Source: Candidatus Magasanikbacteria bacterium GW2011_GWA2_56_11 (lineage in GTDB: Bacteria > Patescibacteriota > Patescibacteriia > Magasanikbacterales > UBA922). Taken from it: a DNA stretch of 64,000 bases. Shown here in pieces: positions 9,246 to 49,588 of this stretch; position 1 is the stretch's first letter; each line of letters begins with the position of its first letter. Location: assembly GCA_001004885.1 (NCBI GenBank), contig LCRX01000001.1, positions 9,849-73,848 on the forward strand. Direction: 5' to 3'. The translations under genes were made by a program, and so were the position numbers. Under the pieces are notes generated by a model. It was not told where the DNA came from and did not search any database. It worked only from the letters and a program-made list of their open reading frames with translations.

Positions 9246-10238
9246 ATGAGTACGGATATATACCCTACTTACCGACCGCCTGAACCCGCCGTAAAGATTG
9301 AAGGGTCTTATTCTTTAGGACAATTCTTAACAGAAATTTCCCCGGAGGGCCGTAACATTTCTGCAGACCAGGAAGAGGGGTTACTTGGAGATTTAAGGAA
9401 ACGTGAGGCGGCGGTAGCCAACAAGGAATTATTGGAAGCATTAGAGGAATACGGTATTGACCCGCACTTGATTGAAGTTCGTCCCGATGGACGTATTCGT
9501 ATTGAAGTACGCAACCATTTTAGCAAAAAACATTTACCTGATGGGTACGCCTATAAAGGCGGGGCGGCCCGTGCTCTTCTTCTGCGCAGCCTGGGCAGTG
9601 TTTTGCAAGTTGAACCTCGCGATATTGATGTGGTCCGCCTAGCCCCCGAAGAACCGTATAAGGGCGCCGATACGGAGCTTGCCAAAGAGTTTATGCCTGA
9701 TGATTTCTCCGAAGGCTGGGGCGTAGAAATAATTAATTCAGAGGATCAATACTTTTCTACCCGTGATGTAACCGTCAACGAAGTTTTGGCCACCGATCAT
9801 GAAGTAATCGCTACCGAGCAATGCGTTATTGACGCCGTCCGTCATATTATTCGTTTAACCGAATTCGAACGTGGTTCAGACAAAGACATATATACTACTC
9901 CAGGTCCGAAAATGCTAGCGAAAATATTAAGGCTCTACTCTGAGTCTATCCATTATTTTGGTGAGGCGGAGATTGCTAATGTCGAAGGTTGGGAGTTTGA
10001 ACAAGCCTTTATTTCCCCATTTTGGCTGGCGTTGCAGCTTGATCATGCGTTTGAAAGGAGCCGTGAGATCGCCGCGCTCTATGTGGAGGAGCTCAAAAAA
10101 CATGGCCAGGTACCACCCCATATTGCTGGACCCGAGGAGGCAGCGATTTACCTGTCAAATTTGATCCGAGGCGAATTTTATTATCGGCACGCGCCCGTGG
10201 AACAGTTTGAATTGGAAGATGAGTGGATGGAAAATTGA
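9246..10238 (+). CDS. Polymerase-beta superfamily nucleotidyltransferase-like protein (PolyA_pol/CCA-adding head-domain-like motif); low GC (~45%)
   Basis: YKGGAARALLLRSLG...RDIDVV resembles the GGAVRDxLLG...DIDI motif of class II CCA/poly(A) polymerases; rest of the 330-aa protein unrecognised. Confidence 0.4.
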   Translation: MSTDIYPTYRPPEPAVKIEGSYSLGQFLTEISPEGRNISADQEEGLLGDLRKREAAVANKELLEALEEYGIDPHLIEVRPDGRIRIEVRNHFSKKHLPDGYAYKGGAARALLLRSLGSVLQVEPRDIDVVRLAPEEPYKGADTELAKEFMPDDFSEGWGVEIINSEDQYFSTRDVTVNEVLATDHEVIATEQCVIDAVRHIIRLTEFERGSDKDIYTTPGPKMLAKILRLYSESIHYFGEAEIANVEGWEFEQAFISPFWLALQLDHAFERSREIAALYVEELKKHGQVPPHIAGPEEAAIYLSNLIRGEFYYRHAPVEQFELEDEWMEN

Positions 10239-10395
10239 AGATAATTTGTTACTCGTAGACGACAAGGTTTTTGGCTGGAACACCCAGGAACCAGTTGTTC
10301 GACGGTGGATCGGGGCGTTTGTGTTTTTTGGGCTGGCGGTATCGATCGATAGGTTTTTCGGATGAAACAACGCTCCGGTCATAACGGTTACTTTT

Positions 10396-11205
10396 TTAAT
10401 CATCCCCTATATAGTGTTGTTTTTCCCAGGCGTCTCGTGTCATTACGCTAATGTTTTTGACCCCGCCTGCATCTAACATCTCGACGGCCATTTGCCTGTC
10501 CGACTCGCTACCGATCAAAACGGCAACACAATTTCCATCGAGAGGCGCGTCTGATATAGTCGGATACTGTAGCGTGGCGTCATAGCTGCCAAGCTCCATC
10601 ATTTTTGGCCCCATGACAAGGACGACTCCTTTGCCAGACGCACCTACCCCATGTGGGGTTAAACCCTTGTTAATAAGATCGCCATTTTTATCAAAAATAT
10701 CCCTCGTCATCATTACATCATCACTTGCTGACCACGCTGGCGGGTTAGCATCAGGGTTTCTTTTTTTAATTTCTGATCGCGATAAAAGTCCGCCGGCTTC
10801 AATGATTCTTTTAAAATTTTCAAAACTCGTTTGGTGATAATGAAATACTCTTTCGGGAGAATCAATGCGCCCCTTTGCGAATGAGCGTATTTCTGCCAAG
10901 ATAACGCTTGGCTCTACCCCTTTCTCTTTTGCTTTGTGGCGAATCATCCGGTCTTTGCCCCGATAACTTTCCATTTGGAGCCTGGCGAGGAATTGTTGTC
11001 TTTCGGCGGGGGTTAGGGCCGGTTTTTCTTTTTCAGGAACCAAAGCTACTGTTGAATCATAATTCGTATTACCATCCCACGTGGCGGCTTTCGATACGTC
11101 AAACGTACCATCTGCCCGCTGTGCCGCGCCAACAATATACTTTGGTTTTTCGGTGCATGCCCCGGTGGCATGATCCCTTCCACAAACTTTGCATCTTGAT
11201 TCCAT
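10396..11205 (-). CDS. Hypothetical protein with N-terminal CxxC...C zinc-ribbon-like motif (269 aa); low GC
   Basis: CKVCGRDHATGAC at N-terminus; convergent with the NTase-like gene. Confidence 0.35.
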   Translation of the reverse strand: MESRCKVCGRDHATGACTEKPKYIVGAAQRADGTFDVSKAATWDGNTNYDSTVALVPEKEKPALTPAERQQFLARLQMESYRGKDRMIRHKAKEKGVEPSVILAEIRSFAKGRIDSPERVFHYHQTSFENFKRIIEAGGLLSRSEIKKRNPDANPPAWSASDDVMMTRDIFDKNGDLINKGLTPHGVGASGKGVVLVMGPKMMELGSYDATLQYPTISDAPLDGNCVAVLIGSESDRQMAVEMLDAGGVKNISVMTRDAWEKQHYIGDD

Positions 11206-11597
11206 ACAGGAATTGGGTTTAGCAAGTCTAAGTAAGTTTCCTCGATTTTTTCCAGTGTTTCAGGTTGAATGAGGGCCTTTTACACATTTAAGTACAGTAA
11301 TTTCAACTACCATTACTATAGCTGTTTTTTGCAATAATGCAATTGGCAAGAGATCGCACGAAGCGTCTTAAGGAATTTAATTAAAACGAAGCGGAGAACA
11401 AGGAGCCACTAGCCAACTGCCTCTGTACTTTGAAACGATGCCGGGCTACTGAAAAGAAATGGAATACGCAGAAAAAATTAAATTCCAGAATTCGATTTTT
11501 TCTTAAAACCGCGTACCAATATCCGGAATTTGAACCCCCGAAATTTTCTCTTATCTTCCAACAAAAAAGAGAGCTTGCATGTGCAAACCCCCAGTTG

Positions 11598-11669
11598 TAG
11601 CGCCAAGGGGAATTGAACCCCTGTTCCCAGGATGAAAACCTGGTGTCCTAACCACTAGACGATGGCGCC
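11598..11669 (-). tRNA. tRNA-Glu (anticodon TTC)
   Basis: reverse complement GGCGCCATCGTCTAGTGGTTAGGACACCAGGTTTTCATCCTGGGAACAGGGGTTCAATTCCCCTTGGCGCT folds as cloverleaf with TTC anticodon; close to E. coli tRNA-Glu. Confidence 0.8.
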
Positions 11670-11780
11670 TCTTGGCCGCCCGGCTTTTGTGTCAGCGGCT
11701 CTGTCTATTGCCTAAAACGGGCTTAGTATACCTAAAGTGTTACCAGCCGTCAACACGGCAGAGCGTCTCCAGCCCGTCTG

Positions 11781-11962
11781 TTGACAGCCAGAAGTCGCTG
11801 TGGTACACTCTCCTCGTCATTAGATAACCGCAGACAGTAGCTCCCGTAACGGGTTAAATACGCTACCGAGGGGATCTACCTGCTTCTTCCCGGTTTAGCC
11901 GGGAAAGGTAAAGGTCGAAGAATCCTGGAGTCTGTGGTCTATACCACAGTTTTTGTTTATCT
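11781..11962 (+). promoter_or_regulatory. Promoter TTGACA-N17-TACACT plus structured 5' leader of the rplJ-rplL operon (L10 leader-like)
   Basis: consensus promoter at 11781-11809; ~150-nt GC-rich leader before rplJ start as in L10(L12)4 autoregulated leaders. Confidence 0.5.
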
Positions 11963-12484
11963 ATGGCCAAAACCAAACAAGTTAAAGCCGACGCGCTCAC
12001 TGACCTCGCGGCTCACATCAAAGAGTCCAAGTCGGTCGTGTTCGCCAACTTCCAGGGCCTCAAGGTCAAGGAGTCGGAAGATCTGCGCGGCAAGTGCCGG
12101 GAAGAAAACGTTTATTACGTGGCGACCAAAAAAACCCTGCTTAACAAAGCCCTGCGGGATGCCGGTTTGGAGATCGACATCAAAGGTTTCCAGGGTGGAA
12201 TAGCCGCCATCTTCGGTCTGCAGGACGAAGTCGCCCCGGCCCAAATCACGGCCCGGTTTGCCAAGACTCACGAGGTAGTAGGCATTTTCGGCGGCGTGCT
12301 CGAGGGACGCTTCATAGACGCGGCGAAAGTTAAGGCGCTCGCCGAGCTGCCGAGCAAGCAACAGTTGCTTGGCCAGTTGGTAGGTACCTTGAACGCCCCC
12401 ATCTCCGGCTTCGTCAACGTACTGGCCGGAAACATCCGCGGGCTGGTTACCGCCCTAAATGCTATCAAAGAGCAGAAAGCCTAA
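11963..12484 (+). CDS. rplJ: 50S ribosomal protein L10
   Basis: [35 protein letters not shown] typical L10 N-terminus. Confidence 0.9.
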
Positions 12485-15369: not shown

Positions 15370-15972
15370 ATGCTTGAACACCTCTTTGGTTCAAAGACCC
15401 GCGTCAAGCTTCTTAGGATCTTGTTTCGTTTTCCGGACAGATCATTTTTTGTGCGCGAGATGGCTCGGACGCTGGAGGTGCAGATAAATGCCGTGCGCCG
15501 GGAAATCGAGATTCTGATGTCCGTGGGGCTCTTGCGCGAAGTGGAAGAGAAAAAAGGCCCGGACGAAGAGATACAGGCGGGGGCAATGCTCCGGAAGTAT
15601 TACCGCCTAGACAAGGAGGCCACGCTTTATCCGGAATTGCATGCCCTGCTGGTCAAAGAACAGCTTTTGGGAGAGGAACAGTTCGTGAAGGATCTACAGT
15701 CGAAAATAGGCACGCCGGAATTGTTGCTTTTGACCGGCCGTTTTACCCACGACGACCGGGCGCCGTCGGACATACTTATTGTCGGCAGCGATATTAAGGA
15801 CAAAATCGTGGCCCGGCTGGTGGCCGATTACGAAAAGGACTTTGGCTTTCCGATCCGGTACACGATTATGGACCACCAGGAGTTTACCGACCGGCGGTAC
15901 GTAATGGACAAGTTTCTGTTTTCGCTTTTCGAGGCAAACCATGTGAAAGCGGTTAATGTTTTCGATTTGTAA
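15370..15972 (+). CDS. Winged-helix transcriptional regulator-like protein (200 aa)
   Basis: LFGSKTRVKLLRILF...FFVREMARTLEVQINAVRREIEILMSVGLL resembles ArsR/MarR-type wHTH. Confidence 0.45.
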   Translation: MLEHLFGSKTRVKLLRILFRFPDRSFFVREMARTLEVQINAVRREIEILMSVGLLREVEEKKGPDEEIQAGAMLRKYYRLDKEATLYPELHALLVKEQLLGEEQFVKDLQSKIGTPELLLLTGRFTHDDRAPSDILIVGSDIKDKIVARLVADYEKDFGFPIRYTIMDHQEFTDRRYVMDKFLFSLFEANHVKAVNVFDL

Positions 15973-16074
15973 GCTGTCCTGGTATTATGAAGCGGTGCAC
16001 GCGCGAGATGATCTACCGGCTGCGCCGGGAGGGGCCGGGCGAGCCGGGCGGACCGGGGCGCAGATAACTGGGTT

Positions 16075-16461
16075 ATGTTTCTTCTCATCAACACGGCCGA
16101 AAAAGGCCAGGTAGAGCTGGCGCTGTTCGACGCCGAACGGCTTGAACAAAAAAAATATCCGGCCGAAAACCGGGATGTTTTGACCAGCGTGGATGATTTT
16201 TTATCTTCCCTGGGAACGAGTAAAGATAATATTCAGGGCGTAATGGTCGTCGTCGGCGCCGGCGGGTTTACGAGCACTCGCATCGCGACGACGATCGCGA
16301 ATGGTTTCGCCTACGCGCGGGCGATACCCGTCATGGGGATCAGCATTGACCAGGTGCCGGAGGCGCAAAAGCTTATTCCCGCTCTTCTTTTCCGGCCGCG
16401 GGGGCAGTATGTGTCGGCGACGTATAGCGGCGAGCCGAATATTGGGAAAATTGAAAAGTAA
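16075..16461 (+). CDS. tsaB: tRNA threonylcarbamoyladenosine biosynthesis protein TsaB (short form, 128 aa)
   Basis: MFLLINTAEKGQVELALF... and GAGGFTSTRIATTIANGFAYARAIPVMGIS match YeaZ/TsaB N-terminal domain. Confidence 0.7.
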   Translation: MFLLINTAEKGQVELALFDAERLEQKKYPAENRDVLTSVDDFLSSLGTSKDNIQGVMVVVGAGGFTSTRIATTIANGFAYARAIPVMGISIDQVPEAQKLIPALLFRPRGQYVSATYSGEPNIGKIEK

Positions 16462-16464: not shown

Positions 16465-17274
16465 ATGGGTCAGGAACAGTGGACATCGTCTGTTGCCGCC
16501 GAGTGGGGGATATTCCTGCCGCCGGCGCGGCCGTCGTTATCCGAACTGGTTGTAATCGAGACGCGGCTTTTCGAAAGAAAAAAGAATAATCCCGGCCTGC
16601 GGGTGGGTATTCTCGGCTCCACTCCGGAGTACCGTGATTTGTGCCAGACTTACGCGATTGATTACCGGTGCGTTGATTACCGCCAGGATAATTTCGACAC
16701 TCTCGGCCGCCATCTTCTTCACCCGGACGGCGCGGAGCGACTGATCGTATCGGACTGGAGGAAAATGGAATTTCCTGGCCAGATTGACGTTTGGCTCGGC
16801 GACTTGGCCACGACCGTGACGCCGGTTTCCGATCACCGCGTGATGTTCGAGAATATCCGCGCGCATTCCCGGCCGGGAGCGGAAGTGATTTTGAAGGTGC
16901 CGCTCCGGGCAGATAATACTGTCCTGACGCACGAGCAGATATTCGCCTTGTACCGCGCGGAACGCGCGCACCTTAATCCATTTGCCGCGGTTTGGATAGA
17001 AGTACTCCTGGCCGACTATGATTTCGCCGCTGACACCATGTATTGTCCGACCAGCCGGGCGAGGCTGGAGGAATCGTGTCGGCAGGGGATTGTCTCCGAA
17101 TTTGAATTTGGCGAATTTACCAAACGGTGGGACGTTTTGGGCGACTTTAAAATGAATATTCCGCTCCGGTCCGAGTTTGTGGCGCGCTTGAGAGAATTCT
17201 TTCCCGTTATCAAATTTACTTCGGGACAGGACTGGTACCGGGAGCAGGTGCCAATAATTATTGGCCGCTACTGA
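16465..17274 (+). CDS. Class I SAM-dependent methyltransferase-like paralog 1 of 8 (TPMT-like?)
   Basis: N-term W..PPARPSLSE; motif I-like VGILGSTPEYRDL; motif II DVWLGD; 4 bp after tsaB stop. Confidence 0.55.
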   Translation: MGQEQWTSSVAAEWGIFLPPARPSLSELVVIETRLFERKKNNPGLRVGILGSTPEYRDLCQTYAIDYRCVDYRQDNFDTLGRHLLHPDGAERLIVSDWRKMEFPGQIDVWLGDLATTVTPVSDHRVMFENIRAHSRPGAEVILKVPLRADNTVLTHEQIFALYRAERAHLNPFAAVWIEVLLADYDFAADTMYCPTSRARLEESCRQGIVSEFEFGEFTKRWDVLGDFKMNIPLRSEFVARLREFFPVIKFTSGQDWYREQVPIIIGRY

Positions 17275-17308: not shown

Positions 17309-17344
17309 AAACGCCTTGACAAGAGGCGTTTTTTAGTGTATATT
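17309..17344 (+). promoter_or_regulatory. Terminator-like hairpin AAACGCCT/AGGCGTTT+T6 overlapping promoter TTGACA-N17-TATATT
   Basis: read directly; lies between paralog 1 and the high-GC PLP gene. Confidence 0.55.
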
Positions 17345-17420
17345 CGGTTATTCCTCGGCCAGACTCGGCGCGGGGTGCATGCGTTCCCGGCTGGCGTCGG
17401 GAAAGGAGGGGTTACAAACC

Positions 17421-18575
17421 ATGGTACGACAAAGCGTCGGGCAGTGGCTGGAAGCCACCTGCCCGAATTATGACACTGCTCTGTCCCCGGTGAGCCGGGA
17501 GGCCGAGCGCGAGCTGGCCGCCAGCTTCGACGTCAATGTCCCGGACATCCCGTACGCGCGGTACGGGAACACGATCTCGCTGGCCGTAGCCAAGAACTAC
17601 GCCGACCGAGTCGGCGCGACGGGGCTCGGCTTCGAGGCTCGCCTCACCAACTGCGGCATGGCCGCGATCCGGGCGGTGTTCGAGACCGGCATCCGGTGCT
17701 ACGCTGACCATCTCGCCGCCGGGAAGGTCCTGTACGGGCTCACCGACGAGCTCTTCAGGACGGCGCCGGATCTCTTCCGGACCACGAAGCCACACCGCTT
17801 CAACGCCGTCCGCGGCCTCGGACCGGACGTGTTCCCCACCGGGATGCGGTTCATGGTGTTCGTCGAGACGATCGGCAATGGGATCCCCATGCCGGTCTTC
17901 GTTCTCGAGAAGTTCCTGCGCGAGCACTGGAACAACCAGGAGGTCCTCGTCGTAGACGGGACTTTCACCACCTGCGCGCTCCTGAACCCGTTCGGGGTCT
18001 ACGACCGGGTCAGGAGGGATTTCGGTCCGGGCACCATCAAGCTGGTGTACGTGGAGTCGCTCTCCAAGTACTACCGGACCGGGGACATCGACCACGGCAC
18101 GGCCGGGATCATCGTCGCGCCCCAGGTGTTCATCGCCGAGTGCGACAAGGTCCTGGCCCACGGCTTCGGGATCCAGTACCCGCAGCTCGCGGACTTCCCG
18201 GTTGACCTCTTCGGGGCCTGCGCCGAGGTCATGCCGCGACTGTCGTTCAACGCCAAGGCCGCGGCCGAGTTCCTGCGCGGGCATCCGCGCGTGAGGAACG
18301 TGTGGTACCCGGGCTGGGACTCGGAGCTGGCGCGGGGCGCCGGCGGCGTCCTCTACCTCGAGGTCGAGACCGATGAGCGCGGCGCGGGCGAGCGGCTCTT
18401 CGAGCCGGTCATCCCGTTCCGGGCCTCGTTCGGACACGCCCAGTCGACGCACGTCGACTTCGGGCAGTTCAACCAGAGCCTGCCGCCTGGCACCATCCGC
18501 CTCGCGGTCGGCACCCGGGAGACCCCGAGCCAGGTCGTCGCGAAGCTCCAGACGGCCCTCGGGCCGCGCCTCTAG
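17421..18575 (+). CDS. Cys/Met-metabolism PLP-dependent enzyme family protein (cystathionine gamma-synthase/beta-lyase/methionine gamma-lyase-like); ~68% GC
   Basis: YVESLSKYY (PLP-lysine motif S.TKY-like) and C-terminal IRLAVGTRE resemble the IRLSVGIE signature; AAGGAGG RBS before ATG 17421. Confidence 0.6.
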   Translation: MVRQSVGQWLEATCPNYDTALSPVSREAERELAASFDVNVPDIPYARYGNTISLAVAKNYADRVGATGLGFEARLTNCGMAAIRAVFETGIRCYADHLAAGKVLYGLTDELFRTAPDLFRTTKPHRFNAVRGLGPDVFPTGMRFMVFVETIGNGIPMPVFVLEKFLREHWNNQEVLVVDGTFTTCALLNPFGVYDRVRRDFGPGTIKLVYVESLSKYYRTGDIDHGTAGIIVAPQVFIAECDKVLAHGFGIQYPQLADFPVDLFGACAEVMPRLSFNAKAAAEFLRGHPRVRNVWYPGWDSELARGAGGVLYLEVETDERGAGERLFEPVIPFRASFGHAQSTHVDFGQFNQSLPPGTIRLAVGTRETPSQVVAKLQTALGPRL

Positions 18576-18701: not shown

Positions 18702-19535
18702 ATGGCTATGGAAAATACAAACTGGCGGACAGATTTCGCCGAACGCTGGGTGAAGTATTGGACCCCGCCCGCTCGCCCGACGCCGGGTTCGCTGGCTTTT
18801 ATTCAGGAGAAGCTGGCTGCCTATCCGAAAAAAGGTCCCCGTGTCCTAGTTCTTGGATCAACGAGCGAGTTCCGGGATATGTTGTTTGACCGGGGAATCC
18901 GGCCGGCCGTCGTCGATTTTAGCCGCGACAACTACCGCATCCTTTCGCAAGCGATGCGGCACAAAGACGAGTACGAAGACAATGAGCGGTATGTCGAGGC
19001 CGACTGGTGCGCGATGGATTTGGGAGAAGAGTTCGACATTATTCTTGGTGATGCGGTTTTTAATATTGTTCCGAAAGAGTCCAACGGGCGGCTGCTCGGA
19101 AACATTAAGCGGCACTTGGCTCCGGAAGGAATATATATCGAGCGGGTGCATGTCTTCCCGGAAAAATATCGCGGGTTTGATATCGCGGCCGAAACCAAGA
19201 AGCGCCGCGAGGACATCGCGCGGCATTCTTTTTACTACGTATTTGGCACGCCTTCATACCTGGCGGCGATGGAAAAAGACAACGAACCGATACCGTTAAA
19301 GAAAGTATCGAGTCTCGTCGACGGCATATATGCCGAAGGACTTATCACGCCCGGCCAGTACGAAGAGTGGCGGCGGCTCGGCAAGCACCTGACCGATTTT
19401 GTTTTCTTTCTTCCGACCGAACAGTTCGCCCGCGACCGGCTGGCGGAATACTTTGCGATCGCGGAGGTGCATGTTGATTACGATTTTCCGTTTTACCCCG
19501 AGTTCTACCCCAATTTTGTGTTAAAAAAATTCTGA
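18702..19535 (+). CDS. SAM-methyltransferase-like paralog 2
   Basis: WTPPARPTPGS; VLVLGSTSEFRDML; VVDFSRDN (post-I); FDIILGDAVF (II); LAPEGIY (III). Confidence 0.55.
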   Translation: MAMENTNWRTDFAERWVKYWTPPARPTPGSLAFIQEKLAAYPKKGPRVLVLGSTSEFRDMLFDRGIRPAVVDFSRDNYRILSQAMRHKDEYEDNERYVEADWCAMDLGEEFDIILGDAVFNIVPKESNGRLLGNIKRHLAPEGIYIERVHVFPEKYRGFDIAAETKKRREDIARHSFYYVFGTPSYLAAMEKDNEPIPLKKVSSLVDGIYAEGLITPGQYEEWRRLGKHLTDFVFFLPTEQFARDRLAEYFAIAEVHVDYDFPFYPEFYPNFVLKKF

Positions 19536-19538
19536 TCT

Positions 19539-20390
19539 ATGGCCCCGAGCACCGCGGTTCCGGAAACCTATGGCACGCCCTGGAAAAAGATCGCGGCTAA
19601 TTGGGCGAAACTTGGCGATGGTAACCATCCATCGCCTCACGATTTGGCTATTTATAAAAAGTACATGGATCAGGCGATCGCAAATGTGGCCGAGCCGCGC
19701 GTCGTGGTGTTTGGAGCGACGCCGGAGCTTCGGGATATGCTCGCGCGCGAGAGAGGGATTGCGGTGACGGTTCTCGATCTTAATTTAGAGATGATCCGGG
19801 CCATGACCGAGCTTATGACCGAGGCGCCGGACCGGGAGACCTGGATCGAGGGGAACTGGCTGGAAGCCCGGCTACCCAGCAACACTTATCAGGTGGTGTT
19901 TGGCGATCAAATTCGGGGCAATGTCCCGTTTGCCCGGCAAGAGGATCTTTACCGCACGATCCACCGAATTCTCGCCCCGGGCGGCGCGCATGTTACCCGC
20001 GATACCAGTCATTTGCCGGAGACCCGTATCCATGATCCGGAAGAGCTAATTGCCAAGTTCGCGGCCGTCCCCTCGACGAAAGAGACGCTGACCGAGTTCA
20101 TGAATACACTTCTCTTTTTGACTCATCGAAATCCAGAGTCAACGACCGATCGGATGTTCTCTCTCCTTGAAAGACATCTGGACCAGCCTTTTATCCGCTC
20201 GTACTACGAACAGATTACGGAAATTCTACCGCGCGGCCAGTCGTGGAATATCGGCCGAAGCTGGGACGAGGTTAGCCGGTCGCTGCTGCGGTATTTTGAA
20301 ATTGCCGACAAGGAACAGGACGATACCGTTTTTGCCGATACCACTTACGTCTATAACTTAAAACCGCGCGCGATAAGTAACTTATCTTGA
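19539..20390 (+). CDS. SAM-methyltransferase-like paralog 3
   Basis: VVVFGATPELRDML; TVLDLNLEMIRAM; YQVVFGDQIRGNV; LAPGGAHV. Confidence 0.55.
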   Translation: MAPSTAVPETYGTPWKKIAANWAKLGDGNHPSPHDLAIYKKYMDQAIANVAEPRVVVFGATPELRDMLARERGIAVTVLDLNLEMIRAMTELMTEAPDRETWIEGNWLEARLPSNTYQVVFGDQIRGNVPFARQEDLYRTIHRILAPGGAHVTRDTSHLPETRIHDPEELIAKFAAVPSTKETLTEFMNTLLFLTHRNPESTTDRMFSLLERHLDQPFIRSYYEQITEILPRGQSWNIGRSWDEVSRSLLRYFEIADKEQDDTVFADTTYVYNLKPRAISNLS

Positions 20391-20393
20391 TTT

Positions 20394-21203
20394 ATGGCCA
20401 TCGCCAACTGGCAACCGACCAAAGCAGAATTTTGGAAAAATCTTCCCGCCCCGGCGCGGCCGTGGCCGAGCGAAGTCGCATGGTTTGAAAAGTATATTCT
20501 CGAGAAGAAGGCCAACGGGCCGGTGGACGTCCTTATTTTAGGTTCGACTGTCGAATTTCGCTCTTTGTGCCACCAGCACGGCGCGCGCGTGCACATAGTG
20601 GATTTTTCCGATAAGTTCTATCGGATACTGTCCGAACAGCCGATGGAATATCGGGGAGAAGAGGCTTTTTACGAACAGGATTGGCGGACAATGGAGCTTG
20701 GTCGGCAGTTTGATCTAATTTTCGGAGACTGGGTGCCGGGGGTGCTCCACACCGTCGATTACGATGTATTTTTCAAACGCATCGTCGCGCATCTCAAAGA
20801 CGACGGATTATTTATCGCCCGCGAGTGCCTTCGCCCCGATCGCACGGTCGTCGATTTGGCCGCCGTGGTCAAGAAACACAACGCCGAATACGCCGACAAG
20901 TACTCTTTTTACGAAAGCTCAATGCAGTATGTTTACGGGTACCGCCCCGACCCGGTCACGGCGATGTGGGATATTCCCGCGGCCCAGTCGGCGCTCGATA
21001 AAGTCCACGCGGACGGTCTTCTCAAAGACAGCGACTATGATTTTTTTACCCGGGCGCTCGCGGTCGAGAAAAGTCCGGCTTCGATCATGGTGGCGGAGGA
21101 TTTTGACCGGGAGGTACAAGGGTACTTTGTTATCCAGGCAAAGCATTTCGGCAACGAGCCGTCGCATAATTGGTACCCTGTTTATGTGTTGAAGAAAAAA
21201 TGA
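20394..21203 (+). CDS. SAM-methyltransferase-like paralog 4
   Basis: LPAPARPWPSE; VLILGSTVEFRSLC; HIVDFSDKF; FDLIFGDWVPGVLH; LKDDGLF. Confidence 0.55.
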   Translation: MAIANWQPTKAEFWKNLPAPARPWPSEVAWFEKYILEKKANGPVDVLILGSTVEFRSLCHQHGARVHIVDFSDKFYRILSEQPMEYRGEEAFYEQDWRTMELGRQFDLIFGDWVPGVLHTVDYDVFFKRIVAHLKDDGLFIARECLRPDRTVVDLAAVVKKHNAEYADKYSFYESSMQYVYGYRPDPVTAMWDIPAAQSALDKVHADGLLKDSDYDFFTRALAVEKSPASIMVAEDFDREVQGYFVIQAKHFGNEPSHNWYPVYVLKKK

Positions 21204-22033
21204 ATATGCCGACCGCACTTTCGAGCACTAAAACCAATTGGAATTACGCCGAAATTTGGGACCAATTCCCGGTGCCGGCTAGGCCGACTCCGTCGGAGAT
21301 TAAACTTTTGGAGAGCGAATTAAAACGTCGCCTGGCCAAAAACAGCCGTCTAAAGCTGCTGATCTTGGGATCAACGATTGAGTACCGTTCGTTAGCCCGG
21401 CATTTGGGCGTTAAACCATACGTGGCGGATTTTTCCCGCGCCAATTACGAGGCCCTGACCGCCTTTTCGCGGGAAAAATTTCCCGGGGAGCATTTCATCG
21501 AAATCAACTGGCTGGATATTGCCGCCGACGGCACGTATGACGTCATAGTCGGACACCGGGTCATGAACGTTGTTAAACATACGGATCTGGTCCGCATGTT
21601 TGCTGTTATGCACCGGGCGCTCAAGCCTGAAGGCGTCTATTTTTGCCGAGGCAATGTCTGGCTGCCCAAAGACAAAGATCGGCTGGCCGAATTGGTGAAA
21701 GCCTACGCTTTTAAGAAACGCCGGCCGCACCCGCTGTTCACGTATTTGGAAGTCGCGTTGTATTTCCATTCGGCCGATCGCCGTGGGTATGTTAATTATC
21801 CGCTGGCTCGCCGCCTGGCGAAAGAGTGGCTGAAAGACGGTCGGATATCCCGCGCTGATTACGAACGGACGACCCCGCTCATTTCCATGCCCAAGGGCAC
21901 CAAGTTTCGCGGGTTAATTCGTCGCGAGGAGATAGTCGCTGCCTATACGGCCGCGGGTTTCAAGCAAGTTTCCTGGCTGTTCACCAGGGAAGATTATTGC
22001 CGGAATATGCCGATTATCAAGTTAAGCAAATAA
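21200..22033 (+). CDS. SAM-methyltransferase-like paralog 5 (ATGA start/stop overlap with paralog 4)
   Basis: FPVPARPTPSE; LLILGSTIEYRSLA; YVADFSRAN; YDVIVGHRVMNVV; LKPEGVYF. Confidence 0.55.
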   Translation: MNMPTALSSTKTNWNYAEIWDQFPVPARPTPSEIKLLESELKRRLAKNSRLKLLILGSTIEYRSLARHLGVKPYVADFSRANYEALTAFSREKFPGEHFIEINWLDIAADGTYDVIVGHRVMNVVKHTDLVRMFAVMHRALKPEGVYFCRGNVWLPKDKDRLAELVKAYAFKKRRPHPLFTYLEVALYFHSADRRGYVNYPLARRLAKEWLKDGRISRADYERTTPLISMPKGTKFRGLIRREEIVAAYTAAGFKQVSWLFTREDYCRNMPIIKLSK

Positions 22034-22036
22034 ATT

Positions 22037-22894
22037 ATGCCCGCAAAGGAAACGTTTGCCACGCCTTGGAAAGACCTCGCGAACCGTTGGGAAGCGTATT
22101 ACACGCCGCCGGGCCGGCCGTCGCCTGAAGATTGCCAGCTCTACGCTAAATACGTCCGTCGGGCCCTGGGAAAAAAGAAGTCTGGCCGGGCGCTCGTATT
22201 AGGCGCCACACCCGAGATCCGTAATTTGCTCCATAAACTGCCGGTCGAAGTAACGTCGCTCGACATCAATTTGGAAATGATACTCGCCATGAATCGCTTT
22301 GTCCCGCAGTGCGAGAAGGATATTTTGGTCCGCGGCAGCTGGGTGGATAATCCGCTCAAGAGTGGCTATTTTGACGCGGTTATCGGGGATTATTCGTGGT
22401 CGAATGTTCCCCGACGCCAGTGGACTCAGTTTAATGAGACGGTCGCGAGGCTTCTTACGCCAGCCGGGCTTTACGTCCATCGCGTTCATTTGGTGCCGGA
22501 CGGCTGGCAACGCGAATCGGCGTTGCCGATAGTTCAAGATTATGCCAGTCGGCCATACAGCCGGCAGCTGGCATTTGAATTGTTTTTTAAACTGCTCACT
22601 AATACTTACAACAAACGCGATCGCAGCGTATCGATGCGGCGAATTTGGGATGATCTGGCTTCATTTTGGCGCGCCGGGAAATTTGTGAGGGGGGCGTCAA
22701 TTCCAGGCGCCGGCCGGCTGTTGGCTGACCTGCATAAATTTTGGGGTACGACTGACAAAACGTGGCAGATTGGATATAAGAGCGATCTCCTGGCTGACAT
22801 CGGTCCCTATTTTCAACTCGGCGAAAGCGTCAAGGCAAACGATTATGACGATGCCGGCTGCGTCGAGATGTGGATATGCCGGAAAAGGCCGTAA
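22037..22894 (+). CDS. SAM-methyltransferase-like paralog 6
   Basis: YTPPGRPSPED; ALVLGATPEIRNLL; VTSLDINLEMILAM; FDAVIGDYSWSNV; LTPAGLYV. Confidence 0.55.
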   Translation: MPAKETFATPWKDLANRWEAYYTPPGRPSPEDCQLYAKYVRRALGKKKSGRALVLGATPEIRNLLHKLPVEVTSLDINLEMILAMNRFVPQCEKDILVRGSWVDNPLKSGYFDAVIGDYSWSNVPRRQWTQFNETVARLLTPAGLYVHRVHLVPDGWQRESALPIVQDYASRPYSRQLAFELFFKLLTNTYNKRDRSVSMRRIWDDLASFWRAGKFVRGASIPGAGRLLADLHKFWGTTDKTWQIGYKSDLLADIGPYFQLGESVKANDYDDAGCVEMWICRKRP

Positions 22895-22903
22895 ACTTTG
22901 CTT

Positions 22904-23770
22904 ATGGCTGGTTACATTGACCAAAAAAAAGACGAATGGAGCGGACAAGTCGCAGCCGCCCGGACAAAGGACCGGTCGCAGTACCCGGGCGGGCCGTCCG
23001 CGAGTCCGGCGATTTTGGCGACCTACGCGCGCCTGATCAACTCGGCTATCGCCGGCAAACAGGCATTCACGGCCTGCGTCCTCGGGGCAACGCCGGAACT
23101 CAGGGACATGGTTCTCGAACGCGGCGGCAATTTGACGACGCTCGACATCAGCGACGAGATGATAGCCAAATGCGCGCCGCTCATGCGCCACCAAGAAAAT
23201 ACTCGCGAAACCGTGCGGATCGCGAGCTGGCTTGATGCTTCGCTTCCGGCCGCCGCGTTCGATTTGGTCCTCGGCGACGGTGCGTCGAACAATATTCCGC
23301 CGGACAAACAAACCGAGTTTTTTGCCAACCTTCGCCGGCTGCTTCGTCCGGGCGGGACTTTGGTTCTGCGCGAGGGCGTTATTCATCCGGACCGCCCGGT
23401 CCGGACAGTGGCCGAGATCAGCCGGGAATTTGACGAAGGCGGCGCGCACTGGTTCGATACCTTTTACGACCTTTATTTGTACAGCGAACTTACCCCTCGC
23501 TACCGCGACCCGGAGACGAGCCGGACCAATCTGGGCGCCTTTTGGGAAGAAATCCGGCAAGCCCGTGAATCCGGCGGTCTTGGCCAGGCCGCTTTCGAGG
23601 CCATGTGGTGGTTCCGCGGTAAAATTATCCATACCATTTATCTGAAACCGGAGTTGGAGAAGTTGATGGCCGGTCATTTTTTCCTTTCTCCGGTGGCTCC
23701 CGATCCCGATCATCTGCGGATGACAAAGGATAGCTGGTTATTTTTCGCGGGCCGGCCGCGTAATCCATAA
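22904..23770 (+). CDS. SAM-methyltransferase-like paralog 7 (ATG 22904; TTG 22898 also possible)
   Basis: ACVLGATPELRDMV; TTLDISDEMIAKC; FDLVLGDGASNNIP; LRPGGTLVL. Confidence 0.55.
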   Translation: MAGYIDQKKDEWSGQVAAARTKDRSQYPGGPSASPAILATYARLINSAIAGKQAFTACVLGATPELRDMVLERGGNLTTLDISDEMIAKCAPLMRHQENTRETVRIASWLDASLPAAAFDLVLGDGASNNIPPDKQTEFFANLRRLLRPGGTLVLREGVIHPDRPVRTVAEISREFDEGGAHWFDTFYDLYLYSELTPRYRDPETSRTNLGAFWEEIRQARESGGLGQAAFEAMWWFRGKIIHTIYLKPELEKLMAGHFFLSPVAPDPDHLRMTKDSWLFFAGRPRNP

Positions 23771-24621
23771 TGTCAACCGCTATGAGTCAACCGCAAAGCT
23801 GGACGCCGATCGCGGACAATCGGGCGCGTCCCGGGAATCGTGTGCCGCCGTTCGCGCCTTCGAGCGCCGAGCTTGGCGTATATGCTAAGTACGTCGGAAG
23901 AGTCCGGGAAAACCCCAGTCTGCCGCCGCGGGCGCTCATCTTGGGGTCGACTCCGGAGCTGCGTGATCTCACGATAAGCGCCGGGCTCGAAGCGCACGCC
24001 CTGGATATCAGCCCCGAGATGCTGGTTAAATTTTCGGCTCTCATGGAGCACGCCGGAAGCGAGCTCGATAAACGCCATCTCGGCGACTGGCGGGCGACCG
24101 AATTTCCCGCCGGTTACTTTGGTTTAGTTTTCGGCGACGGATCGCTAATGAGTCTCGCCAGCCGCGAAGACAATGAAACTGTTGTCGGAAGGTGCGCGCG
24201 AAGTCTCTCGCCTGGGGGTTATCTGGTGGCGCGCAACAGTTGCTTTGTTTCGGATTACGACGGTTATCGCGATGCGTCTGCCCTGGTCGGGGATTACCGC
24301 GCGGGCAAATTGACCTGGAATGATCTTTTTATGGAGCTAAGGTTTTTCGTTTTTAAAGATCAGGCGTACAATCCGGCAAACTTCCAGTACGACGCCGGTG
24401 TGACTTTCCGGCGCATAGACGAGCTTCAGGCCGCCGGTCTTTTGCCCGACGGGGAGTACAAGCGCATCAATGAATTCAGGAATTCCATAATCAATACCGT
24501 TTACCCGGAGGCGGAATTCGTCTCCATGGTTGGACGCCATGGTTTCCGACTCGAGGAAACTTTTCACGACGGACCGGAGTTGTTTTTCCGCCATTTTTTT
24601 ATGCTGGCGTTTGCCCGGTAG
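23770..24621 (+). CDS. SAM-methyltransferase-like paralog 8 (TAATG overlap with paralog 7)
   Basis: ALILGSTPELRDLT; HALDISPEMLVKF; FGLVFGDGSLMSL; LSPGGYLVA. Confidence 0.55.
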   Translation: MSTAMSQPQSWTPIADNRARPGNRVPPFAPSSAELGVYAKYVGRVRENPSLPPRALILGSTPELRDLTISAGLEAHALDISPEMLVKFSALMEHAGSELDKRHLGDWRATEFPAGYFGLVFGDGSLMSLASREDNETVVGRCARSLSPGGYLVARNSCFVSDYDGYRDASALVGDYRAGKLTWNDLFMELRFFVFKDQAYNPANFQYDAGVTFRRIDELQAAGLLPDGEYKRINEFRNSIINTVYPEAEFVSMVGRHGFRLEETFHDGPELFFRHFFMLAFAR

Positions 24622-24636: not shown

Positions 24637-26184
24637 TTGCCTATGGACAGGCAGAAAAAATTAACCGTGGCTACGACCAACTACGAAGTCTCGATTTGGC
24701 CCCTGTGCATGCTGGTCGAGATGCTTTCCTCTGATTTTCATAAGCTCGCCGGAGAAAATTACGGCGGGATGAAGATCCAGGAGTGGCAGAACCGGACGAA
24801 CCGCGTTGCGGTCGATCCCACGGCGCATGAGCGGATTACCCGGCTCATGCTGAAAAAAGCCGGAGAGCGTCCGGCCTGGGCCCGAGGGATACTCAAAAGG
24901 ATCCCCCGCGAGTGCCGGACGCTGCTGGCATTCACCACCGGCGTGGCCCGGTCTGATTTGACTAAAAAAAGCAACCGCGAGCTTTATGGATTGTACCGCG
25001 AGTACGAAAAACGGTTTCGGCAGATGTACCTCTATTCCTGGTTTCCGAATTCTTTGGAGGGGCCAAACAACCTTTTGACGAAAAAACTGGGGGACTATCT
25101 TGGCCGCAAATTGAAAGCTCTTGATAAGCCGGAACAGGCGAGCTCATATCTGAGCGTGCTGCTTACTCCTACGCGTTTGAGTACCAGGCAAAAAGAAGAA
25201 CGCGATCTGTTACGCCTTGTCGGACGAATTCAAAGTTCGCGGGATGCCAAGCGACTGTTTATCAGGGGAACAGACACAATCGTAGCCCGTCTTGGCGTCC
25301 TTGATCCGGTCCTGCGGCGGGCGATCCGGCGTCATCACCGTGTTTATGCTTGGATGCCGTACAATTACGATGGCCCGGCGTGGGGGATTGAGTATTTCTT
25401 GGATCGTATTCGCAGTCTGATTATTCAAAAAAATTCTGTGGACAAACTCATGAGCGCTCTTGAGGCCGAACGGCGAGGACTCATGGCTCTCCAGCGTCGG
25501 ATGTCCCGGGAGTTGAAACTAAACGAAGATACGGAGTATCGTTTTTGGATTGGCCTCGCGCGCCAGGCGATGTATCTAAAGGATTACCGTAAGGATGCCC
25601 TTTTTAAGTCCTATTTTCACATGGACAGGCTCATCCGTGAGATCGCCCTTAGATTGTACCTGTCGCCAATTCAAGTAAAACACATTTTGCCCGAAGAGAT
25701 GGAAGAGATTTTGGAAAGCGGAGAGGTAGACGCGCATCAACTCAACGAGCGTCTGGCATATTCGGTGCTTGTGCGTGATAGCACAGGCCATCGGTTATAT
25801 ACCGGAGAACAGGCGCGCACGGTTATGAAACGATACGTGAAAGAAATCCCGACGCTGCATTTGTCCGAGCTTCGCGGCGAGGTTGCCTACTTTGGCAAAG
25901 CGCATGGCGAGGTCTGTATAGTGTTTACGACGGCCGATATGGCCAAGATGAAGCCCGGGGATGTACTGGTATCGGTCGCGACCAATCCCAACTTGCTTCC
26001 GGCCATGCGCCTCGCTGGCGCAATCGTTACTGACAGGGGCGGAATTACGAGCCACGCCGCTGTGATCGCGCGGGAATTGAAGATACCCTGTGTTACCGGA
26101 ACGAAGACAGCCACGCAGGTCTTTAAAGACGGCGATCTCGTAGAAGTCGATGCCGAAGCCGGTATTGTCCGGCGGCTCGGTTAG
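24637..26184 (+). CDS. Protein with unrecognised ~400-aa N-terminal region and C-terminal PEP-utilizing enzyme mobile (phospho-His swivel) domain
   Basis: C-terminus ...VTDRGGITSHAAVIARELKIPCVTGTKTATQ... matches PEP-utilizers mobile-domain TSHAA His motif; no ATP-grasp/PPDK N-domain recognised. Confidence 0.6.
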   Translation: MPMDRQKKLTVATTNYEVSIWPLCMLVEMLSSDFHKLAGENYGGMKIQEWQNRTNRVAVDPTAHERITRLMLKKAGERPAWARGILKRIPRECRTLLAFTTGVARSDLTKKSNRELYGLYREYEKRFRQMYLYSWFPNSLEGPNNLLTKKLGDYLGRKLKALDKPEQASSYLSVLLTPTRLSTRQKEERDLLRLVGRIQSSRDAKRLFIRGTDTIVARLGVLDPVLRRAIRRHHRVYAWMPYNYDGPAWGIEYFLDRIRSLIIQKNSVDKLMSALEAERRGLMALQRRMSRELKLNEDTEYRFWIGLARQAMYLKDYRKDALFKSYFHMDRLIREIALRLYLSPIQVKHILPEEMEEILESGEVDAHQLNERLAYSVLVRDSTGHRLYTGEQARTVMKRYVKEIPTLHLSELRGEVAYFGKAHGEVCIVFTTADMAKMKPGDVLVSVATNPNLLPAMRLAGAIVTDRGGITSHAAVIARELKIPCVTGTKTATQVFKDGDLVEVDAEAGIVRRLG

Positions 26185-26300: not shown

Positions 26301-26858
26301 TCAGGGGTTGAAGACCTCGACAGCGGTTGTCGAGTCCGAGATTAGTTCGGTCGTCTGCGGATCGTGTATGAAGAGCACGGTCCCGGGCGCGAGCCAGCTC
26401 CGGTCTACCGGCTGCTCGACCCAGTCCCGGACGCCTTTCTGGATCGCGGTCCGGGAGGCGATTACGAGCAGCGCCTGCTCGCGGCTAGTTTGCCGCGAGC
26501 GCTCATTGCGTCTGCTGTCGAGCTCGCTGATGCGGTCGCCGACAACCTGGCCGGAGCTCTTGGCCGCGAGTTCACTCTGCGGGCCAAAAGTGGTTACCTC
26601 GATGCCCTGGGCGACCAGGGTGCCGGTCAAGATATCGGCCGCCAGCAGGTAGCGCGGCAGAGCGCCGTGAGCCAGGCAGACAGCGCGGACGCCGCGTTTC
26701 CGGCAGAGTTTGGCCACCAGCGCGGCAGAGCGCAGCAGACGCCGCCGCAGTCCGATACAGACAAAAAATTCCATCTGGTCTTCTTTCCGGGTCATCTTGA
26801 CCCCACAACGTTGGTCCCCTTGCTCCCTGCTTGGGAACCCATAACCGCGCCCGGACAC
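26301..26858 (-). CDS. Hypothetical protein; possible CX5R phosphatase-like loop (FFVCIGLRRRL); start uncertain
   Basis: minus-strand ORF has more protein-like composition than overlapping plus ORF 26364-27101; weak CX5R match only. Confidence 0.25.
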   Translation of the reverse strand: MSGRGYGFPSREQGDQRCGVKMTRKEDQMEFFVCIGLRRRLLRSAALVAKLCRKRGVRAVCLAHGALPRYLLAADILTGTLVAQGIEVTTFGPQSELAAKSSGQVVGDRISELDSRRNERSRQTSREQALLVIASRTAIQKGVRDWVEQPVDRSWLAPGTVLFIHDPQTTELISDSTTAVEVFNP

Positions 26859-27139: not shown

Positions 27140-27460
27140 ATGACGCGCAAACGCCTTTTTCTTACGGTCTATGGCGACGTGCAGGGAGTCGGCTTCCGTT
27201 GGCACACGATGAAAAAAGCCGTCGAACTCCAGCTTACCGGCTGGGTGCGAAACGAACGCGACGGCAGCGTCTCGATTGCCGCCGCCGGAGACGAAGACAA
27301 GCTGCTTGAACTTCGAGCCTGGGCTCTTCGCGGTCCGCGGCCTGCGCGGGTGGAGCGGATAGAGGAGCGGTGGGAAGACGTTCCGCCTTTGGCCCCGGGA
27401 GCCGACCCGGCAGAGACCGAAGACCAGCCGGAGAGTGATTTCCGCATCAAATACTATTAG
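27140..27460 (+). CDS. acyP: Acylphosphatase
   Basis: VYGDVQGVGFRWHT...GWVRNERDGSVSI matches acylphosphatase signatures. Confidence 0.8.
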   Translation: MTRKRLFLTVYGDVQGVGFRWHTMKKAVELQLTGWVRNERDGSVSIAAAGDEDKLLELRAWALRGPRPARVERIEERWEDVPPLAPGADPAETEDQPESDFRIKYY

Positions 27461-47970: not shown

Positions 47971-48030
47971 AGACCCGTTTTACGGACAAGGCCTGCCTGC
48001 CGTAGTCCGCTAGCTTACGGACATAACTAG

Positions 48031-48104
48031 GCACGCCTAGCTCAGTTGGTTAGAGCATCTCGTTTACACCGAGAGGGTCGGGGGTTCGAATCCCTCGGCG
48101 TGCA
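48031..48104 (+). tRNA. tRNA-Val (anticodon TAC)
   Basis: GCACGCCTAGCTCAGTTGGTTAGAGCATCTCGTTTACACCGAGAGGGTCGGGGGTTCGAATCCCTCGGCGTGCA. Confidence 0.8.
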
Positions 48105-48149
48105 CACCTCCGCCCCGCTTTGGCGGGTTGCGGTACCAGGCAAATACAA

Positions 48150-48222
48150 GCCGTTGTAGCTCAGTTGGTAGAGCGCGTCCATGGTAAGGACGAGGTCACC
48201 GGTTCAATCCCGGTCAACGGCT
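48150..48222 (+). tRNA. tRNA-Thr (anticodon GGT)
   Basis: GCCGTTGTAGCTCAGTTGGTAGAGCGCGTCCATGGTAAGGACGAGGTCACCGGTTCAATCCCGGTCAACGGCT. Confidence 0.8.
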
Positions 48223-48226
48223 CGGG

Positions 48227-48254
48227 TAAAACTCCGCCCCCCTAGGCGGAGTTT
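48227..48254 (+). terminator. Hairpin AAAACTCCGCC-CCCCTA-GGCGGAGTTTT
   Basis: perfect IR with T-run after tRNA-Thr. Confidence 0.7.
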
Positions 48255-48322
48255 TATGTAATTGTAAATGCAAATAACGCTGGTGGACAGTAGGACCAAT
48301 TAAGATTTATAATTCTATCGAT

Positions 48323-48910
48323 ATGAAAATGACGTCCGCAGTTATTGAGATAATAACGCTTATTATCGTAATTTTAGGCTTACTTTTTTTTGATTTTGCC
48401 ACAAGCAATTACGTTGTCCTCATTTCAATTCTAGTTGTCGGTTCTCGACTGGGATGGCTCTTTTACAAAAGAGAATTAACCCTGAAAGCAAATATCCAGA
48501 AAGAAGGCAGAATTTTTTCCGGGTGGATGAGGTATGGGACAATACTGTTGCTAGCGTTCGGTTTGTTGTTTGTATTCCAAGATGACATTAAAGGTTTGCC
48601 TATCTGGCTTACCGACCAAGAGCCTGTTTGGTTTACCTTTTTTCATGTGGGGGCACAGGAGGCAATTTTTAGGGTTTACCTTTTAAGCAGACTACAGACA
48701 ATACTTGATAGCCGAGCTGTTATTGCGGTTCTAGGCGGTCTTTTGTTCGGAGTTGTCCATTTCATTTTACCCGGTGCTTTGATAGTCGTGGCCTTCACCT
48801 CCATCTTGGGTACCGCCTGGTGTTACGTTTATCAACGGTATCCTAATTTCATCCTTGTCTGGCTTTCTCACACTTTGTTAAATTTCGCAATTAAGAGTTT
48901 GGTACAGTAG
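48323..48910 (+). CDS. CPBP family intramembrane metalloprotease (CAAX protease/Abi-like); ~40% GC
   Basis: motifs QEAIFR (EExxxR-like), FGVVHF (FxxxH), SHTLLNF (HxxxN) in a polytopic membrane protein. Confidence 0.6.
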   Translation: MKMTSAVIEIITLIIVILGLLFFDFATSNYVVLISILVVGSRLGWLFYKRELTLKANIQKEGRIFSGWMRYGTILLLAFGLLFVFQDDIKGLPIWLTDQEPVWFTFFHVGAQEAIFRVYLLSRLQTILDSRAVIAVLGGLLFGVVHFILPGALIVVAFTSILGTAWCYVYQRYPNFILVWLSHTLLNFAIKSLVQ

Positions 48911-48973
48911 GTCAACCATTTTAGTATATAACGGACCAAGTGTTACCTGACTCGTAGGGGTGACACTAAGGCA

Positions 48974-49061: not shown

Positions 49062-49104
49062 AGTAGATCATCTGTTATTATAAACCCAGCCATAAATTTA
49101 GCGT

Positions 49105-49575: not shown

Positions 49576-49588
49576 CCCAAAGTAGTAT

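Follow-up and report, generated by a model that had tools for sequence, protein, structure and literature searches.

In aromatic catabolism, two-component small-molecule dikinases were characterised in 2025 from Actinobacteria and Proteobacteria: hydroxyphenylethanone kinase (HpeHI), 4-methylbenzyl phosphate synthase (CreHI) and phenylphosphate synthase (PpsAB) (PMC12167813). The HpeH, CreH and PpsA components, which are ~45% identical to one another, consist of a domain resembling the rifampin-binding domain (RIF-BD) of rifampin phosphotransferase (RPH) and a swivel domain, and lack an ATP-grasp domain; ATP is presented by a separate ATP-grasp protein of ~315-340 aa (~40 kDa) (PMC12167813). 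The swivel histidine accepts the beta-phosphate, with release of AMP and inorganic phosphate (Pi), and the swivel passes the phosphate to the phenolic substrate in the large domain (PMC12167813). RPH is the sole PDB structure that aligns with HpeH over most of its length (PMC12167813), and RPH of Listeria (RPH-Lm; PDB 5FBS/5FBT/5FBU and 5HV1) is a single chain of 867 aa with its N-terminal ATP-grasp domain at residues 1-314 (PMC4844700). Here we describe KKW43018.1, a protein of 513 aa from Candidatus Magasanikbacteria bacterium GW2011_GWA2, encoded at 24643-26184 on the + strand of a 64,000-nucleotide stretch of DNA (the window). We assign it, with a probability of roughly 0.7, as the H component of a two-component RPH-type small-molecule dikinase.

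Comparison with described dikinases

KKW43018.1 has the same plan as HpeH, CreH and PpsA, a RIF-BD-like domain followed by a C-terminal swivel in a chain free of ATP-grasp, and is ~100 aa shorter (513 aa against ~650 aa, the latter inferred from tagged HpeH of 71.1 kDa). It is also shorter than the PRK08296 models (568-633 positions), which are presumably PpsA-like; these align with the swivel alone (aa 410-513), so that KKW43018.1 would be at most a distant relative. The genetic context differs as well: the HpeHI, CreHI and PpsAB genes belong to aromatic catabolism, whereas here the neighbours are methyltransferases and a pyridoxal phosphate (PLP)-dependent enzyme in Patescibacteria, where relatives of KKW43018.1 form arrays of ~10 acceptor modules per ATP-grasp gene.

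In RPH-Lm the substrate domain precedes the swivel, as in KKW43018.1; the latter has no ATP-grasp domain and is thus not a three-domain single chain. Sequence identity between the two is only 14-18% (Foldseek), and the NCBIfam RPH model NF041857 gives KKW43018.1 62 bits against a cut-off of 999. The swivel is highly similar to that of phosphoenolpyruvate (PEP) synthase (PDB 8a8e), and the regulatory-site threonine of PEP synthase and pyruvate phosphate dikinase (PPDK) is kept as T469, whereas the third domain folds differently. The prodiginine ligases PigC, RedH and HapC fall in the same RPH-like dikinase superfamily, with NCBIfam swivel matches at E 1e-14 to 1e-17, but only the swivel aligns with KKW43018.1. 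These ligases are three-domain single chains of ~880 aa in which ATP drives a condensation reaction.

Gene and domain content of KKW43018.1

An open reading frame (ORF) runs without interruption from 24637 to 26184 on the + strand. The ATG at 24643 is the likely start, giving the 513-aa substrate-domain and swivel protein, and a TTG at 24637 is an alternative start codon of the same gene. The database has two exact copies, P0001 and P0182 (the latter being KKW43018.1), both of 513 aa and 100% identical. The deposited name, 'Phosphoenolpyruvate synthase/pyruvate phosphate dikinase', is a misnaming. The Pfam scan found neither PF01326 (PPDK_N, the ATP-grasp domain) nor PF02896 (PEP-utilizers_C, the TIM barrel) in the protein, in agreement with a first-pass annotation, made by reading the sequence alone, that had noticed neither domain.

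NCBIfam models for PEP synthase, PPDK, RPH, PigC and Enzyme I cover only the C-terminal ~100-250 aa of KKW43018.1 and score far below their cut-offs. For PEP synthase the scores were 112 against 598 bits (PRK06464) and 98 against 740 (TIGR01418), and for TIGR01828 the score was 42 against 843 bits. The phosphotransferase system Enzyme I model TIGR01417 covered the swivel region alone (aa 463-511), at 37 against 342 bits. Since KKW43018.1 has neither the ATP-binding nor the pyruvate/PEP-binding domain, counting such genes as gluconeogenic would mislead metabolic reconstructions of these reduced genomes. A comparable label, 'pyruvate, water dikinase', is attached by JGI to P0052, a relative fused to an ATP-grasp domain.

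The swivel domain and His471 are conserved

The only Pfam domain in the ORF is PF00391, the PEP-utilizers mobile domain, at aa 439-509 (25951-26163, +; E 3.6e-24; 84.6 bits against a gathering cut-off of 23.1; profile positions 2-72 of 72). The swivel of PEP synthase 8a8e is the best PDB sequence match of the protein (E 2.1e-24). The first-pass annotation had already recognised a C-terminal phospho-histidine swivel from the motif GGITSHAAVIARELKIPCVTG, which is present in KKW43018.1. The swivel loop reads TDRGGITSH (T463-D-R-G-G-I-T-S-H471) and fits the HpeH motif T/SxxGGxxxH (PMC12167813).

His471, the predicted phospho-carrier, is encoded by the CAC codon at 26053-26055 (+; 513-aa numbering). 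Its conservation had been proposed as a check on the swivel assignment, and it proved unchanged in 16 orthologs, 7 paralogs and all of 133 wider-family members (133/133). T463, G466 and G467 are invariant in the orthologs and 93-100% conserved across these 133 sequences. T469, two residues before His471, is 97% conserved in the same set; a threonine at this distance ahead of the histidine is a regulatory site in PEP synthase and PPDK (PMC12167813).

The N-terminal domain is predicted to fold like the substrate domain of RPH

Neither Pfam nor NCBIfam recognises anything in the N-terminal 400 aa of KKW43018.1. A structure was predicted with AlphaFold2 from an alignment of 18 relatives, and the model was confident (pLDDT 84.8, pTM 0.81). 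In a Foldseek search of the PDB with this model, the top six matches were all RPH-Lm (5fbu, 5hv1 and 5fbt among them), at E 3e-14 to 6e-12 over 466-577 aligned columns with TMq of 0.49-0.57. PPDK, PEP synthase, pyruvate kinase and Enzyme I were matched at E of at least 1e-7 and TMq of at most 0.2, values which indicate that the swivel alone was matched. RPH is thus the sole near-full-length structural match in the PDB, and because RPH alone matches most of the length whereas for PPDK, PEP synthase and Enzyme I the match is confined to the swivel, KKW43018.1 has the architecture of the HpeH/CreH/PpsA components. The N-terminal domain (aa 1-403; 24643-25851, +) is mostly helical in the model, with the RIF-BD fold. 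Since the predicted structure matches the substrate domain of RPH-Lm, we regard the N-terminal 400 aa as a divergent RIF-binding (substrate) domain and not as a new domain, and the domain would provide the site for the acceptor substrate.

Positions 264-514 of a full-length profile of the family align with residues 611-866 of RPH-Lm. This alignment places the motif K313-D314-Y315-R316-K317 (25579-25593, +) against the RPH-Lm block R666-E667-Y-P-K670. Mutagenesis has identified R666 and E667 of RPH-Lm as essential for the second phosphotransfer, and K670 lies in their hydrogen-bond network (PMC4844700). K313, R316 and K317 are invariant in the orthologs and conserved at 95, 92 and 88%, respectively, across 133 wider-family members. 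Elsewhere in the N-terminal domain, W133, P135, N136, H231, Y242, G244, R337, H347 and R370 are invariant in the ortholog alignment, and W237, E333 and E352 are conserved too.

These results explain the 'unrecognised domain' of the first-pass annotation in terms of an architecture and a chemistry that are already known. The description holds at the level of sequence, where Pfam and the PDB give no match, and fails at the level of fold, where RPH-Lm is matched. The outcome named there as a refutation, that the region would match the nucleotide-binding domains of the PpsA/PPDK type, was not borne out by Pfam, NCBIfam or Foldseek, and the analogy drawn with rifampin phosphotransferase was apt, RPH-Lm providing the top Foldseek matches.

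Three classified family members carry ATP-grasp domains

A word-indexed search of 5.8 billion proteins returned only 18 relatives of KKW43018.1, all with the same architecture; those with a name are from Patescibacteria. A hidden Markov model (HMM) of the N-terminal domain, searched against 1.84 billion cluster representatives, matched 2840 at E<=1e-3, 1611 at E<=1e-10 and 414 at E<=1e-30, family clusters being counted at 50% identity. The best 150 of these 2840 matches and the 18 relatives, 3 being common to both, gave 165 members that were classified by architecture. The two-domain plan of N-terminal domain and swivel accounts for 144 of the 165, and ~12 are tandem multi-unit proteins.

An ATP-grasp domain is carried by three of the classified members: P0052, P0089 and P0024. 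P0052 (829 aa) comprises PPDK_N, the N-terminal domain and a swivel, and its sequence aligns with RPH only in the ATP-grasp and swivel domains. The HMM scan of P0089 gave the order PPDK_N, swivel, N-terminal domain, swivel, which probably represents two substrate-plus-swivel units, the first with an N-terminal domain too divergent to be detected. P0024 has four units of substrate domain and swivel and one PPDK_N. KKW43018.1 is 31-34% identical to the units of these three proteins over 434-517 aa. The fusions tie the N-terminal domain family functionally to an ATP-grasp partner. In a further member, P0047, the dikinase module is fused to a HAD phosphatase domain.

P0019, P0024, P0028, P0031 and P0089 are predicted at 1000-2309 aa with 2-4 tandem units of substrate domain and swivel, and some of them carry one ATP-grasp domain; they may be true fusions or products of read-through in gene calling.

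A candidate ATP-grasp partner is encoded in related genomes

The view that a stand-alone swivel needs a partner for phosphate loading, taken in the first-pass annotation, agrees with the lack of an ATP-grasp domain in KKW43018.1. The suggestion that this partner might be found among the genes of the locus was not supported: the genes nearby encode methyltransferase paralogs and a PLP enzyme, and neither the window nor the flanks searched contain an ATP-grasp gene. The search covered record positions 35331-114865 (~80 kb) of the 115,128-nt contig. The PPDK_N HMM was applied to all six-frame ORFs from 70 aa upwards, in the window as in the flanks; Pfam was run on the 31 largest ORFs of the window, and for the flanking genes precomputed Pfam matches were consulted.

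One orthologous locus, from Moranbacteria (L013), has a stand-alone PPDK_N gene of 315 aa (Pfam E 3.5e-98), which shares the strand of the PLP gene and precedes it by 2.3 kb. Its product is 70% identical to the fused ATP-grasp domains of P0052 and P0089. Stand-alone ATP-grasp relatives of ~315 aa number in the thousands (7811 of 8000 scored candidates at E<=1e-40); among the best 120 clusters identity is 72-88%, and those that carry a name come from Patescibacteria. This candidate partner of Patescibacteria scores best against PEP synthase models.

Two large Patescibacteria contigs, L019 (1-20951) and L021 (1-20996), have one PPDK_N gene each in a span of 21 kb, alongside 9 swivel domains in L019 and 11 in L021. 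Both arrays include His_Phos_1 and low-molecular-weight (LMW) phosphatase genes, and L019 additionally has MetK and S-adenosylhomocysteine hydrolase genes of the S-adenosylmethionine (SAM) cycle and a PfkB kinase gene. Literature searches found no description of arrays of this type. The simplest interpretation is that a single conserved ATP-grasp protein acts in trans on several divergent acceptor modules, and that in the Magasanikbacteria genome it would be encoded at another site.

The gene neighbourhood is conserved in Patescibacteria

The dikinase gene is the last of a tight run on the + strand and begins 21 nt after the last methyltransferase gene. Ahead of it stand seven tandem paralogs of ~280 aa with the class I SAM-methyltransferase fold (18702-24621, +; E 1e-78 to 1e-93 with an HMM of their own), at 18702-19535, 19539-20390, 20394-21203, 21200-22033, 22037-22894, 22904-23770 and 23770-24621. 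The gaps among these seven genes are -4 to +9 nt. An eighth methyltransferase-like paralog (16465-17274, +; own HMM E 1.1e-79) lies upstream of the gene for a divergent Cys/Met-metabolism PLP-dependent enzyme (17379-18575, +; PF01053 E 1.5e-12). The latter is methionine gamma-lyase-like: its best PDB sequence matches are methionine gamma-lyases, and the SLSK lysine motif is kept at aa 227-230. The tight spacing of the dikinase and methyltransferase genes suggests translational coupling.

Pfam matches of the window paralogs to Methyltransf_11/25 are weak. The AlphaFold2 model of the paralog at 23770-24621 (pLDDT 92.6) has a class I small-molecule methyltransferase fold, and its top Foldseek matches include CysG, BelI, Plasmodium phosphoethanolamine methyltransferase, MitM, RebM and CmoA, at E ~1e-9 to 1e-10, which do not discriminate between them. 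The eight paralogs (~270-290 aa) are only 15-25% identical to one another; the motif LG(S/A)TPE(L/F)RD replaces the usual GxGxG SAM loop, and D79, W107 and G-D123 are conserved.

Comparison was made of 17 distinct orthologous loci, from Magasanik-, Falkow-, Buchanan- and Moranbacteria and from unclassified Patescibacteria. A methyltransferase-like gene lies directly upstream of the dikinase gene in all 17, with 1-8 paralogs per locus ahead of it, and the PLP gene is present in each of the 14 loci that have enough upstream sequence. Single methyltransferase paralogs have orthologs in other Patescibacteria loci at 47-50% identity, and the paralog at 20394-21203 has a close counterpart in L001:4762-5568. 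Loci differ in how many methyltransferase and swivel genes they have, the two numbers changing independently of each other (8:1 to 4:5). In its minimal form (L017) the cassette consists of the PLP gene, two methyltransferase genes and the dikinase gene, amid ribosomal and glycolytic genes. The GC content of the cassette is typical for the contig, with no sign of recent transfer.

Proposed mechanism and role

In the proposed mechanism, a separate ATP-grasp protein of ~315 aa, encoded elsewhere in the genome, would bind ATP. His471 of the swivel would attack the beta-phosphate, AMP being released and the gamma-phosphate lost as Pi, and the swivel domain would then swing back to the N-terminal domain of KKW43018.1 itself. 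There the conserved basic cluster K313/R316/K317 may bring the phosphate into place, so that a hydroxyl or a comparable nucleophile of the bound small molecule can accept it. This acceptor is probably part of a pathway encoded by the neighbouring, presumably co-transcribed genes for the methyltransferase paralogs and the methionine-gamma-lyase-like PLP enzyme. Because the linkage to methyltransferases and a gamma-family PLP enzyme is fixed, the acceptor could be a metabolite that undergoes methylation as well as phosphorylation, or a substrate that phosphorylation activates for PLP chemistry.

Several observations weigh against assigning KKW43018.1 as the H component of such a dikinase. The 64-kb window and ~16 kb of additional flank yielded no ATP-grasp gene, PPDK_N is encoded at most 10 kb away in just 1 of the 17 distinct orthologous loci, and in the HpeHI, CreHI and PpsAB systems the ATP-grasp gene is adjacent, which it is not here. 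A profile of the N-terminal domain alone gave zero matches to PDB sequences even at E<=10, and the homology of this domain with RPH is drawn from the predicted structure and from a profile alignment anchored by the swivel. In the aligned motif, the equivalent of RPH Arg666 is a lysine, and D314, the equivalent of Glu667, is conserved in the narrow ortholog group only.

KKW43018.1 might instead be a self-sufficient phosphotransferase that works through a His471 intermediate with no ATP-grasp partner, either shuttling phosphate between two small molecules that bind the N-terminal domain in turn or using an acyl phosphate or PEP as donor. HpeH alone moves phosphate from 4-phosphoacetophenone to acetovanillone, and phenylphosphate synthase carries out a similar exchange, but the HpeH reaction is very slow, at 2.7 nmol/min/mg (PMC12167813). 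ATP-grasp genes are missing from 16 of the 17 orthologous loci and from the ~80 kb around the KKW43018.1 gene, whereas relatives are fused or adjacent to ATP-grasp domains. For a PEP donor, KKW43018.1 has no PEP-binding domain in Pfam; for an acyl phosphate, an acylphosphatase gene lies 1 kb downstream, but is not conserved in the other loci. We consider this explanation unlikely. The deposited annotation, by which the protein would be a diverged or truncated PEP synthase or PPDK, is barely credible: its swivel is indeed most similar to that of PEP synthase, but PPDK_N and PEP-utilizers_C are both missing, the PEP synthase score is 112 against 598 bits, the fold of the N-terminal domain matches RPH and neither PEP synthase nor PPDK, and the two-domain architecture is itself conserved in 144 of the 165 collected family members.

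A regulatory phospho-carrier or protein kinase acting on the neighbouring methyltransferases or the PLP enzyme has a precedent in VadK, a PPDK-derived histidine kinase that autophosphorylates and interacts with metabolic enzymes; VadK, however, keeps its own ATP-grasp domain and KKW43018.1 does not. Pyruvate kinase, too, has swivel domains as accessories (2e28, 3t05), a further precedent being the swivel-like C-terminal domain of the Bacillus enzyme, and the short distance to the methyltransferase genes suggests translational coupling. Such a role is nevertheless improbable given that the N-terminal domain has a small-molecule-binding RIF-BD fold with the basic catalytic cluster kept, and that methyltransferase and swivel gene numbers vary independently (8:1 to 4:5). 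The same chemistry could also serve to inactivate xenobiotics or antibiotics, the methyltransferase paralogs acting as parallel detoxifying enzymes. RPH-family enzymes inactivate antibiotics, distant clades being predicted to have other substrates (PMC4844700), and the large arrays of divergent paralogs in relatives, some interspersed with toxin-antitoxin modules, would suit that purpose. We give this role little credence, as the PLP-methyltransferase-dikinase gene content is conserved across several Patescibacteria lineages, the methyltransferase paralogs have orthologs of 47-50% identity (20394-21203 being close to L001:4762-5568), the four genes of L017 have ribosomal and glycolytic genes around them, GC content is unremarkable and PADLOC returned no match for the dikinase.

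Taking KKW43018.1 as the H component of a two-component dikinase, we tentatively put forward a wider scheme in which Patescibacteria possess a hub-and-spoke dikinase network and KKW43018.1 is one spoke, within a conserved four-gene pathway that makes or processes a phosphorylated, methylated metabolite. A single, highly conserved stand-alone ATP-grasp protein may load the swivel histidines of numerous divergent acceptor modules, of which up to ~10 are observed per 21 kb, accompanied by histidine-phosphatase, LMW-phosphatase and HAD genes. The four-gene pathway may comprise a PLP enzyme of the Cys/Met type, two or more small-molecule methyltransferases and the dikinase module; as a speculative example, an O-phospho-amino-acid could be converted to a phospho-amine and then to an N-methylated phosphocholine-like head group. 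If true, the scheme would give genomes without conventional kinases a modular means of phosphorylating metabolites, whether scavenged or from pathways. Clusters of 10-20 kb or more in the very small genomes of Patescibacteria suggest that the small-molecule chemistry is important.

The family of KKW43018.1 would extend two-component small-molecule dikinases to ultra-small symbiotic bacteria, where the genes are organised differently, with an ATP-grasp gene that is unlinked or shared, multiple acceptor modules and fixed methyltransferase and PLP neighbours. Literature searches found no description of the large Patescibacteria family of the N-terminal domain, of its separation from the ATP-grasp gene or of the invariant PLP/methyltransferase cassette. 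The four-gene cassette of L017 is small enough for in vitro reconstitution.

Other features of the window and of related loci

Scans for promoters and terminators gave results that did not clearly exceed those expected from shuffled sequence. A terminator-like hairpin with a 9-bp stem and a T-run at 17309-17344 (+) overlaps an 11/12 promoter-like site; lying between the first methyltransferase paralog and the PLP gene, it suggests a transcription-unit boundary, in a scan that overall did not clearly exceed this expectation. Just upstream of the cassette, a 128-aa ORF at 16075-16461 (+) has a weak TsaD-family match (E 2.2e-6 over ~55 residues) and may represent part of a TsaB-like protein. The acylphosphatase gene downstream of the dikinase gene lies at 27140-27460 (+; PF00708 E 3.7e-24) and is not conserved in the other loci compared. 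Between these two genes, an ORF of 159-185 aa at 26301-26858 (-) has no Pfam or PADLOC match, and a strong promoter-like site, TTGACA-17-TACAAT, is found on the same strand at 26951-26923 (-).

A reading of the cassette as a defence system was dropped: PADLOC gave no match for the dikinase or the PLP enzyme, and two methyltransferase paralogs had only a weak generic mad2 match. In related loci, toxin-antitoxin-type genes (PhdYeFM-like antitoxin, PIN, AbiEi/AbiEii) stand between swivel paralogs at L001:11645-12245, L001:16413-17082 and L018:7688-8978. Proteins of ~250-320 aa with an N-terminal R-H-(G/E/A) and a histidine phosphatase-like look recur in the paralog arrays, at L001:13842-14801, L014:15961-16851, L013:13121-14071 and L013:4215-5087 and, on the - strand, at L005:1696-2460 and L005:6246-7076; Pfam found His_Phos_1 in L005:6246-7076 alone (E 7.7e-5) and gave no match for the others. 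A HAD phosphatase gene lies inside the paralog-array locus L013, at 15567-16196. Within the window, which has a mean GC content of 0.556, low-GC patches were seen at 48001-50000 (0.42) and 10001-12000 (0.47).

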